From: Verrucomicrobiota bacterium
GTDB lineage: Bacteria; Verrucomicrobiota; Verrucomicrobiia; Palsa-1439
Reading direction: 5' to 3'
NCBI GenBank assembly: GCA_003164675.1
Contig: PLTX01000034.1
Location: forward strand, 9,680-73,679
DNA length: 64,000 bases
Numbering within the stretch: the first letter of the stretch is position 1; every line of letters begins with the position of its first letter. The translations under genes and the position numbers were made by a program. Under the pieces are notes generated by a model. It had not been told where the DNA came from. It ran no database searches and was given only the letters and a program-made list of their open reading frames with translations. Shown here piece after piece: positions 7,325 to 9,063 of this stretch.

Positions 7325-8176
7325 ATGGGAAAGAACTCCAGCATTGAGTGGACAGATCACACATTCAACCCATGGTGGGGCTGCGCAAAAGTTTCGCCTG
7401 CCTGTACCAACTGTTACGCCGAAGCGTGGTCACGGCGGGTGGGGGCCGACATCTGGGGCGCGGGCGCAAGTCGACGTTTCTTTGGCACAAAGCATTGGCA
7501 GGAGCCGCTAAAATGGAATGAAGATGCCAAGAGAGAAGGGCGTCACAAGCGTGTGTTTTGCGCCTCCATGGCCGATGTGTTTGAAGAGCGCCCCGACTTG
7601 CATGCCACTCGTCGAAAACTGTGGCAATGGATTCATCTGACTCCTTGGCTGGATTGGCTTCTGCTGACGAAGAGACCCGAGAACGTCGGTCTCATGGTTC
7701 CTTGGAAGGATAAGTGGCCTACGAATGTTTGGCTTGGTACTTCCGTCGAAAATCAGGAATGGGTTAAGCAGCGCCTTCCTCTACTGCTGACCTATCCAGC
7801 CCAATGCCGGTTCCTTTCTTGCGAGCCATTGCTGGGTTCTCTCGACCTTCGTGCATGGATCGAAAGCCGTCCGGCGAAACTGTATCCAATCAACTGGGTG
7901 ATTGCAGGAGGGGAGAGCGGCCCAGGTGCCAGACCAATGCTCCCGGGGTGGGCGAGGAACGTACGTGACCAGTGCCAAGCTGCTGGCATCCCGTTTCATT
8001 TCAAGCAATGGGGGCATTGGGCCCCTGTTTCGGCCCCGAAACGTGAGGGTCCACTAGTACGTAAATTCTGGGACGAAGTGGCGGGCATGGAAATCTTCAT
8101 GGCCGCAAAGGGGAAGAAGATTGCTGGACGCCGGCTAGATGGAATGACGTGGGATCAACTCCCCGTAACGGCATGA
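7325..8176 (+). CDS. DUF5131 (phage Gp37/Gp68 family, PF07505) three-Cys-motif protein
   Basis: [38 protein letters not shown] matches the family N-terminus (IEWTDxTWNPxxGC...S.xC.xCYAE). Later conserved [10 protein letters not shown] and FLSCEPLLG are present. The ORF opens at 6977 but overlaps the previous gene; the start at 7325 is preferred. Confidence 0.75.
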   Translation: [283 protein letters not shown]

Positions 8177-9063
8177 GTGCTGAAGACTTTCTCTTTGAGC
8201 TTCCACCAGCCGATCTAAAGATCGCTGAAAGAAAGTTCAAAGAGCGCAACCCGATCTGGACGGGGTGCAAGGCGAGACTCATCGAGCGCTATCTTTTTTA
8301 CTTTGTTCAAATCACTTACCATGGGACTTACATCGACGCTTTTGCGGGGCCGCAAGAATGCGACAAACATGAGATGTGGTCGGCGAAACTCGTGATGGAA
8401 AGCTCGCCGAGGTGGCTGAAAAACTTCTTCCTTTTTGAACTCAAAGATTCGCAAGTGAAGTTGCTTAGGCAGATGTGCAATAGCCAGCCGCCCCCTGATA
8501 AGACGAAGAAGGAACCGAATCGAAAAATCAAAATCTATCCGGGGGACTTTAATCAGAACATCCTCATGATGCTGCGTGAGAATCCGATTCGAGATAAAGA
8601 AGCCACGTTCTGTCTGCTAGATCAGAGAACCTTCGAGTGCGACTGGGCGTCCGTCAAAGCCATTGCTGACCACAAACGGGGCGGAAACAAAATCGAGCTG
8701 TTTTATTTCTTTCCAGAGGGTTGGATCAACCGAAGCATGAAAGCGAAGAAAATTGACAAGGATGAAGCTCTCAAAAAATGGTGGGGTGATTCGTCTTGGC
8801 CCGAACTGATGAAGAGGCAAGGGGCTGTCCGCGCTCAATATGTTTGCGACCGATTTAAATCGGAACTGAAATACAAACACGTTTATCCATTTCCGATTTA
8901 TGAGAAACCCGACAAAGGCGGCAGAATCATGTATTACATGATACATACGTCAGACCACGACGAAGCGCCATTATTAATGAATCGTGCGTATGGAAAAGCC
9001 CTTGACATCAAAGAGACACCCGAACAACTGGATTTGCTGAAGGTTTCTCTCGCCAAGAATTGA
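8173..9063 (+). CDS. Probable three-Cys-motif partner protein (TcmP-like), partner of DUF5131
   Basis: 296 aa, translationally coupled to the DUF5131 gene by an ATGA overlap. GC is markedly lower than in the neighbours. It contains YIDAFAGPQ, resembling the TcmP (TIGR04474) family that is regularly found next to PF07505 genes. The assignment rests on synteny and size and no HMM was run. Confidence 0.45.
   Translation: MSAEDFLFELPPADLKIAERKFKERNPIWTGCKARLIERYLFYFVQITYHGTYIDAFAGPQECDKHEMWSAKLVMESSPRWLKNFFLFELKDSQVKLLRQMCNSQPPPDKTKKEPNRKIKIYPGDFNQNILMMLRENPIRDKEATFCLLDQRTFECDWASVKAIADHKRGGNKIELFYFFPEGWINRSMKAKKIDKDEALKKWWGDSSWPELMKRQGAVRAQYVCDRFKSELKYKHVYPFPIYEKPDKGGRIMYYMIHTSDHDEAPLLMNRAYGKALDIKETPEQLDLLKVSLAKN

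Follow-up and report, generated by a model that had tools for sequence, protein, structure and literature searches.

Few radical S-adenosylmethionine (SAM) enzymes are known to have DNA as their target, being represented by spore photoproduct lyase (SPL) and by gp53 of phage M6, an SPL-like radical-SAM isomerase of thymidine hypermodification which acts post-replicatively on DNA bases (PMC8989533). Another relevant source is the set of PDC systems, comprising 145 candidates picked for their embedding in BREX, DISARM or type I restriction-modification (RM) loci and having the status of predictions from "guilt by embedding", not of established defence (bioRxiv 10.1101/2024.01.29.577857). Two PADLOC candidates from this set, PDC-M41 (where A is TcmP, the three-Cys-motif partner, and B is DUF5131) and PDC-M30, have the same two-gene architecture as the pair of genes considered here, which lies in a stretch of 64,000 nucleotides (hereafter the window) from contig PLTX01000034.1 of a Verrucomicrobiota bacterium. 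A preliminary description of this DNA, made without database searches, took the pair for an unrecognised system; in fact it is an already catalogued architecture, with the DUF5131 protein scoring 195 bits against PDC-M41B and 188 bits against PDC-M30B. The literature searched contained no functional test of DUF5131, TcmP, PDC-M41 or PDC-M30 and, as had been supposed, no assigned function. According to one paper, which reports nothing further on this candidate, PDC-M30 occurs more often in P. aeruginosa strains resistant to phages; the S. meliloti TcmP gene SMa2243 lies near the defence gene for the Hna helicase and is co-regulated with it (PMC12445080), and elsewhere TcmP is named in lists of annotations. 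Here, we propose that the pair is a mobile two-gene operon encoding a radical-SAM enzyme of two subunits whose substrate is nucleic acid, probably DNA, and assign to this reading a probability of about one half. All coordinates refer to the window, L-numbers are labels of compared loci, and the elements under study are as follows:

7171-9082, no strand assigned: whole insertion of 1,912 nt, bounded by the stop codons of the DUF6600 gene (TAG, 7168-7170) and of recD2 (TCA on the plus strand, 9083-9085) and made up of the leader, both genes and a further 19 nt
7171-7324, plus strand: leader of 154 nt upstream of the DUF5131 gene, in which a T-rich tract comes after a GC hairpin (GCGCGC-ACAAGA-GCGCGC)
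7325-8176, plus strand: DUF5131 (Gp37/Gp68) gene for a radical-SAM-fold protein of 283 aa with an invariant CX6CX2C triad
8173-9063, plus strand: TcmP gene for a partner protein of 296 aa with the class I Rossmann SAM-methyltransferase fold, its translation coupled to that of the DUF5131 gene by ATGA at 8173-8176

According to the proposed scheme, DUF5131 and TcmP would form one complex, in which DUF5131 would cleave SAM reductively to give the 5'-deoxyadenosyl radical, and this radical would attack nucleic acid, most likely a DNA base, by hydrogen abstraction, with TcmP providing target recognition and/or a second SAM-dependent step. A DNA base is favoured as the putative substrate because of the SPL-like fold of DUF5131 and the existence of an alternative, SPL-family partner of TcmP (both described below). 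More speculatively, the biological role may consist in protection against mobile DNA or in competition among mobile elements, that is, in defence or epigenetic marking, as the candidate status in PADLOC implies.

Assignment of the first gene to PF07505 was borne out by profile search, the match covering positions 1-243 of the 243 in the profile (E 2.2e-84, 283.2 bits at a cut-off of 28.9), and the protein also matches phrog_2045. Three cysteines, C20, C27 and C30, are invariant across 30 aligned homologues, and their spacing, CX6CX2C, agrees with the earlier impression of a triad that is radical-SAM-like yet non-canonical. The structural model displays a partial TIM-barrel radical-SAM core fold with SPL as the best structural match, and the invariant triad is found where a [4Fe-4S] cluster would be placed; in RadicalSAM.org DUF5131 constitutes megacluster 5-2, beside SPL. 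Comparison with SPL itself (PDB 4fhc; PF20903, TIGR04070) reveals only 12% identity, CX6CX2C versus CX3CX2C and a length of 283 versus approximately 340 aa, while SPL acts alone, without a methyltransferase-fold partner; the DUF5131 protein of the window matches neither of the SPL hidden Markov models (HMMs), PF20903 and TIGR04070, and a PDB sequence search with it returned a chance match only. As for gp53 of phage M6, it may be taken as a functional precedent, since it is an SPL-like radical-SAM enzyme working on DNA bases in virus-host conflict, but it has canonical CX3CX2C and belongs to a multi-gene pathway that also includes a kinase, an amino-acid transferase and a pyridoxal-phosphate-dependent decarboxylase. 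The "radical SAM mobile pair" family, TIGR04471, likewise includes a radical-SAM protein in a mobile two-gene pair; the match of DUF5131 to it is weak and of superfamily level (E 3e-6, 26.9 bits versus a cut-off of 355), so that DUF5131 is a non-member, and the partner in TIGR04471, judged from the family name only, is a second radical-SAM protein. Ophion, a recently described radical-SAM defence system of three genes, has a make-up unlike DUF5131-TcmP. A viperin-like activity, in which a modified nucleotide or small molecule would block phage replication and TcmP would bind or methylate the nucleotide, appears improbable, since SPL is clearly the better structural match (13.7 versus 10.0), the pair has no linked gene for a nucleotide kinase or a transporter, and the family alignment, by inspection only, is devoid of viperin-type motifs.

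The second gene had been recognised as TcmP by its size and motif, and the match to NCBIfam TIGR04474 (143.6 bits at a cut-off of 53, profile positions 2-261 of 263) confirms this. The ATG with which this gene starts at 8173 shares bases with the TGA of the DUF5131 gene at 8174-8176, which is the ATGA coupling noted at the first inspection, and the start codons of both genes are backed by homologue alignments; DNA homology of cassettes from other genomes begins at 7321-7325, in agreement with the start of DUF5131. TcmP adopts a seven-stranded Rossmann-like fold of class I SAM methyltransferases, in which, by inspection, YIDAFAGPQ forms a loop resembling motif I after strand 1, the acidic and almost invariant E89 ends strand 2, and the dipeptide D125-F126 follows strand 3; these residues would be the usual SAM contacts. 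Class I enzymes such as Trm1, RlmJ, CmoA, HEN1 and LCMT1 carry the motif (D/N/S)PP(Y/F), in place of which TcmP has D-Q, and TcmP further differs from them by the family-specific N-terminal helix W29-T-x-x-K33-x-x-L-I-E-x-Y-L and the C-terminal H258-A-S-D261-H262. The "DQ" motif together with a His-containing C-terminal motif recurs in three TcmP subtypes (LLDQRT/HASDH, IIDQCG/GSHH and FLDQQG/ATDH). Neither the PDB, searched at sequence level with the TcmP profile up to E 10, nor the BFVD library of viral structures, where significance was required, yielded any match. Resemblances in the N-terminal part and in motif I had suggested a specific kinship of TcmP with RlmJ/DUF519, which on sequence grounds was rejected, hhalign with RlmJ of E. 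coli giving a probability of 0.2%. Binding of SAM and transfer of methyl groups by TcmP are predictions. The top fold matches, Trm1, CmoA, HEN1, TYW4, RlmJ, TrmR, Trm5a and RlmCD, are mostly RNA methyltransferases, which is consistent with a different reading, namely modification of tRNA or rRNA by a radical-SAM and methyltransferase couple comparable to TYW1/TYW2-4 or RlmN/Cfr, serving as a translation-tuning module or as a toxin-like effector of abortive infection. The label "RNA methyltransferase" given by depositors to one phage DUF5131 (see below) points in the same direction; the SPL-like fold and the SPL-family partners, taken as favouring a DNA base, point away from it, and we consider RNA as the target quite unlikely.

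Joint action of the two proteins is consistent with a natural DUF5131-TcmP fusion of 584 aa found in Candidatus Entotheonella (L088, 7128-8882). In five Acidobacteriota loci, the gene upstream of a TcmP approximately 50% identical to that of the window encodes an SPL-family radical-SAM protein instead of DUF5131:

L069, 6779-7804: SPL-family partner gene, product within the range of 341-346 aa
L094, 6687-7853: SPL-family partner gene, 388-aa open reading frame (ORF) from the first start
L098, 6816-7836: SPL-family partner gene, split
L109, 6874-7902: SPL-family partner gene, product within 341-346 aa
L126, 21-1061: SPL-family partner gene, product within 341-346 aa

These partners carry the canonical motif CPGECAYC (CX3CX2C), and the two that were scanned, from L069 and L126, match PF20903 with 36 and 30.6 bits (cut-off 27) and also TIGR04070. 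Since the alternative partners match the Pfam family of SPL, the partner of TcmP appears to be always drawn from the SPL-like branch of radical-SAM proteins. The other half of the pair is exchangeable as well. In L011 (8357-10386) and L012, relatives with RecD2 91% identical, another DUF5131-TcmP pair occupies the same chromosomal site. The DUF5131 of L011 shares with that of the window 90% of identity as protein and 85.6% as DNA (86.7% and 86.4% of DNA identity for the flanking HemB and RecD2), while its partner is a TcmP of 359 aa belonging to another subtype (120.7 bits with TIGR04474, 334 bits with PADLOC PDC-M30A), for which neither BLASTP (no similarity) nor hhalign (0.8% probability) detects relation to the TcmP of the window, so that their common family rests on the TIGR04474 HMM. 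DNA homology between the two loci ends at 8142, around 30 nt before the DUF5131 stop, and restarts at 9095, marking recombination breakpoints at approximately 8142 and 9095. The reverse case is provided by a scan of genomes, in which one genome per species was taken, resulting in 80 loci: one TcmP subtype, mostly 46-54% identical to the TcmP of the window, stands beside DUF5131 proteins 31-72% identical. From the swap in L011 and from this association of one TcmP subtype with widely diverged DUF5131 it follows that the two genes are shuffled against each other, and rapid exchange of TcmP against conserved DUF5131 suggests that TcmP may be the specificity determinant.

Association with phages, anticipated for the family, holds for DUF5131 and fails for TcmP. 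DUF5131 occurs in 173 of 50,697 phage records, mainly of temperate Mycobacterium, Gordonia and Burkholderia phages, and in the four inspected cases (phi1026b gp38, Squirty gp73, prophiGD08-3 gp27 and PBC5 orf76) it is found in the company of early genes and of genes for replication and recombination (RuvC-like resolvase, replication initiators), with no TcmP-sized neighbour. The TcmP subtype of the window is limited to 3 phage records, all from Gordonia. In one of them, BaxterFox (L049, NC_031226; 5737-7733), the TcmP-like gene 42 comes right after gene 43 for the immunity repressor, in the interval between integrase and repressor, and an intact unannotated DUF5131 ORF is convergent with gene 42 over a 4-nt overlap, two short opposite-strand genes, 40 and 41, being annotated over this ORF. 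In Mycobacterium phage prophiGD08-3 (L137, 3001-5114), whose DUF5131 homologue is the one labelled "RNA methyltransferase", this gene directly precedes a PAPS-reductase-like protein, which may be another partner in phages. Placement among replication and recombination genes, together with housekeeping neighbours of most chromosomal copies, would suit an accessory DNA-repair enzyme, in which DUF5131 reverses a DNA lesion in an SPL-like manner and TcmP serves as lesion- or DNA-binding subunit with no immune function; SPL being the closest structure, true SPL-family proteins partnering some TcmPs and the origin of the hosts from soil and peat, where bacteria are exposed to desiccation and UV, favour it too. 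This explanation is nonetheless unlikely in our estimation. The DUF5131 of the window has no match to SPL HMMs and SPL requires no methyltransferase-fold partner, while extreme swapping of TcmP subtypes against conserved DUF5131, patchy presence in close relatives, embedding in RM, BREX or DISARM loci and lasting foreign codon usage are all unusual for repair.

The proposed status of the pair as a mobile enzyme-coding operon relies on its behaviour in chromosomes. Scanning of metagenomes with the RecD2 protein gave 40 loci, 52-98% identical over the best aligned segment (73-95% for full-length matches). In four of them (L009, L035, L036 and L038, RecD2 93-95% identical) the site is empty: DUF6600 and recD2 genes are convergent, and their stops are approximately 5 nt apart (..GGGAATTAG TCCGT TCACTGG..). 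DNA homology of the relatives to the window ends at 7170 and restarts at 9095/9096, which places the pair on the 1,912-nt insertion. Composition is in line with this: GC content is 0.591 for the window, 0.560 for the DUF5131 gene and 0.467 for the TcmP gene, the latter being, as its visible AT-richness had indicated, the lowest among all 890-nt stretches of the 64 kb (mean 0.591, sd 0.028), and GC at third codon positions (GC3) is 0.577 and 0.562 versus 0.75-0.82 in HemB, LexA, the DUF6600 gene and RecD2. Because of the empty syntenic site and atypical composition, the pair is an accessory, horizontally acquired insertion, which contradicts the alternative of a core gene conserved with native GC. 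Its acquisition was not very recent, an option rejected because DUF5131 diverged from the copy in L011 as far as the flanking core genes did (about 86% of DNA identity), in step with long residence at the site. Foreign GC3 (0.56-0.61 versus approximately 0.8) is retained by the pair in the lineages of both the window and L011. Amelioration of codon usage is thus absent despite this long residence.

At the ends of the insertion, a target-site duplication, terminal inverted repeats, an integrase, direct repeats and attC-like elements were looked for, and none was found, nor was any tRNA as insertion target within 20 kb; the insert and its surroundings gave no match to the sigma-70 consensus, a terminator, a riboswitch or other Rfam families. 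The leader may serve as promoter. Around 60-70 nt just upstream of the DUF5131 start (CGAATTTyCTTTTGTTCTrTGC..CATTTTA) are shared with L011, and no conservation of the leader was seen with cassettes at other sites. Leaders of 73 cassettes have mean GC of 0.49 versus 0.576 for their loci, and k-mer enrichment detected no common upstream motif in them except AT-richness.

In other genomes the pair travels without its neighbours. Identical TcmP was found in 79 blocks of the collection with the same context as in the window, while TcmP homologues 62-81% identical always have DUF5131 directly upstream in wholly different surroundings, such as the end of the division cluster right after ftsZ (L133), MFS/ADH genes (L131), or aminotransferase, glycosyltransferase and FecR/AraC genes. 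DNA similarity of these cassettes to the window is confined to two ORFs (7321-9040), and they have a common GC pattern, approximately 0.54 for DUF5131 and 0.47-0.49 for TcmP. The 80 loci of the genome scan belong to Verrucomicrobiota, Acidobacteriota, Binatia, Nitrospira, Alphaproteobacteria, Myxococcota, NC10, Anaerolineae and others; DUF5131 is immediately 5' on the same strand in 73 of them, two more are cut at the contig edge, and the remaining five have the SPL-family gene. The identical 4-nt overlap is present in 24 of 77 pairs, and most others are spaced by -8 to +36 nt. No recurring third gene family was detected among 83 loci. Since the cassettes sit at unrelated sites with homology limited to two ORFs, with no third gene and with an empty site in relatives, sequence comparison consistently presents the pair as a self-contained two-gene unit, mobile across phyla. 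The TcmP subtype of the window comprises 1,378 clusters at 50% identity (E <= 1e-3), and 2 of 72,556 plasmid records match it.

Neighbourhood of the pair had been suggested as a place to look for conserved association with helicases or methyltransferases. No association with RecD2 was found, and a weak link of family level was detected for methyltransferases: in a set of 97 genes of at least 245 aa directly adjoining the pair, N6_Mtase (5), Eco57I (4) and Type_ISP_C (3) are the most frequent families and RecD2 is absent. N6_Mtase, type IIG or ISP enzymes make up five of the 97, a share that by rough estimate well exceeds what would be expected if a genome has only several genes of this type. 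The remaining neighbours are of housekeeping type, e.g., ribonucleotide reductase, alanyl-tRNA synthetase, aconitase and methionine synthase. These methylase neighbours, together with the embedding criterion of the PDC set, support the defence candidacy of the pair.

Several observations weigh against the proposed two-subunit radical-SAM enzyme and its role in conflict with mobile DNA. For DUF5131, the spacing is CX6CX2C, not canonical CX3CX2C, and cluster binding and SAM cleavage are only predicted. Accepted members of the radical-SAM superfamily with non-canonical Cys spacing exist. The deviation thus lowers the likelihood of radical-SAM membership of DUF5131 without excluding it. For TcmP, the motif following strand 4, D150-Q151 (LLDQRT), is no known catalytic methyltransferase motif IV, no Pfam family matches the protein, hence none of the methyltransferase families, and its fold matches, mostly RNA or small-molecule methyltransferases, are 8-13% identical, leaving the substrate class ambiguous. 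Against PDC-M41A, TcmP scores weakly, with 40.9 bits over positions 80-215 of the 298 in the profile (without PADLOC's own thresholds); since about half of the profile is covered, the TcmP of the window probably represents a divergent subtype within the PDC-M41 candidate class. Phage DUF5131 is usually without TcmP and lies in regions of replication and DNA metabolism, where repair fits as well as defence. Insertions of the pair are mostly solitary, in housekeeping contexts and with no nuclease or other effector, which is hard to reconcile with defence unless the pair itself is the effector. Finally, the literature search brought up neither a biochemical nor a genetic test for DUF5131-TcmP pairs.

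A further extension of the proposal, tentative and with the odds against it, is that such pairs may constitute a new class of two-subunit radical-SAM enzymes modifying or damaging DNA bases in the conflict between bacteria and mobile DNA, where catalysis would belong to an SPL-like subunit and exchangeable TcmP "specificity" subunits of methyltransferase fold would join it to produce a so far unknown DNA mark, or lesions in the DNA of invaders, with no separate nuclease. If DNA is indeed modified or damaged in this way, a new enzymatic principle of epigenetic marking or immunity would be at hand. The family is widespread, its chemistry is unassigned and its defence label is that of a candidate only. 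The locus offers a clean natural experiment, with filled, empty and partner-swapped alleles at one site and no confounding neighbouring genes; the copy itself is an ordinary member among thousands, and the interest lies in the family.

The genes on the recD2 side of the insertion, whose position was initially regarded as suggestive, are as follows:

9083-11251, minus strand: RecD2 (TIGR01448, 919 bits), convergent with the pair
11333-12244, minus strand: N6-adenine methylase fragment of 303 aa with Eco57I and N6_Mtase matches, 2.3 kb from the pair

On these grounds the pair, RecD2 and the adenine methylase might be thought to make up one nucleic-acid-modification or anti-phage island, given their physical closeness in the window, the few family members adjoining type IIG/ISP enzymes and the Hna-linked TcmP gene of S. 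meliloti mentioned above. Yet RecD2 has native GC3 (0.82), is kept in place in approximately 40 relatives, most without the pair, is transcribed convergently, hence not co-transcribed with it, and adjoins it in none of the 83 other DUF5131/SPL-TcmP loci; for these reasons RecD2 is no partner of the pair. The methylase was correctly described as truncated and of gamma class, since its motif I (DPGAGIGS) precedes motif IV (NPPY). An orphan partner it is not: the fragment is the N-terminal 303-aa remnant of an 837-aa fused methylase/target-recognition/endonuclease protein (type IIG-like), intact in L047 (2779-5292), which lost its target-recognition and endonuclease parts in the window by a deletion of approximately 1.55 kb between 11411 and 11412. 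The closeness of RecD2 and the methylase fragment to the pair is coincidental and carries no functional information; a functional unit formed by all of them is essentially excluded, and the island explanation is highly improbable. The RlmD-RecD2 spacer varies among relatives from approximately 0.6 to 4.3 kb, with two large TPR membrane proteins there in L011, and the DUF6600-FHA spacer is likewise variable (loci L009-L048, compared with the flanks of 9083-12293 in the window). Such variability marks the recD2 flanks as spots where accessory DNA comes and goes and suggests a local hot spot on both sides of the gene.

Two other groups of genes in the window deserve mention. At 579-1132 on the minus strand, overlapping genes for a BrnT toxin (94 aa) and a CopG-type BrnA antitoxin (93 aa) are recognised via Pfam labels on identical genes of L001 only. 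At 13865-16258, also on the minus strand, there are three successive paralogues, each starting with a GYF_2 domain (MYKI.G.DG.EYGPV..EQL.QWI.EGRANAQT) and continuing into differing membrane domains (UPF0259, TM2 and DUF4190), with a DUF2752 gene between them.

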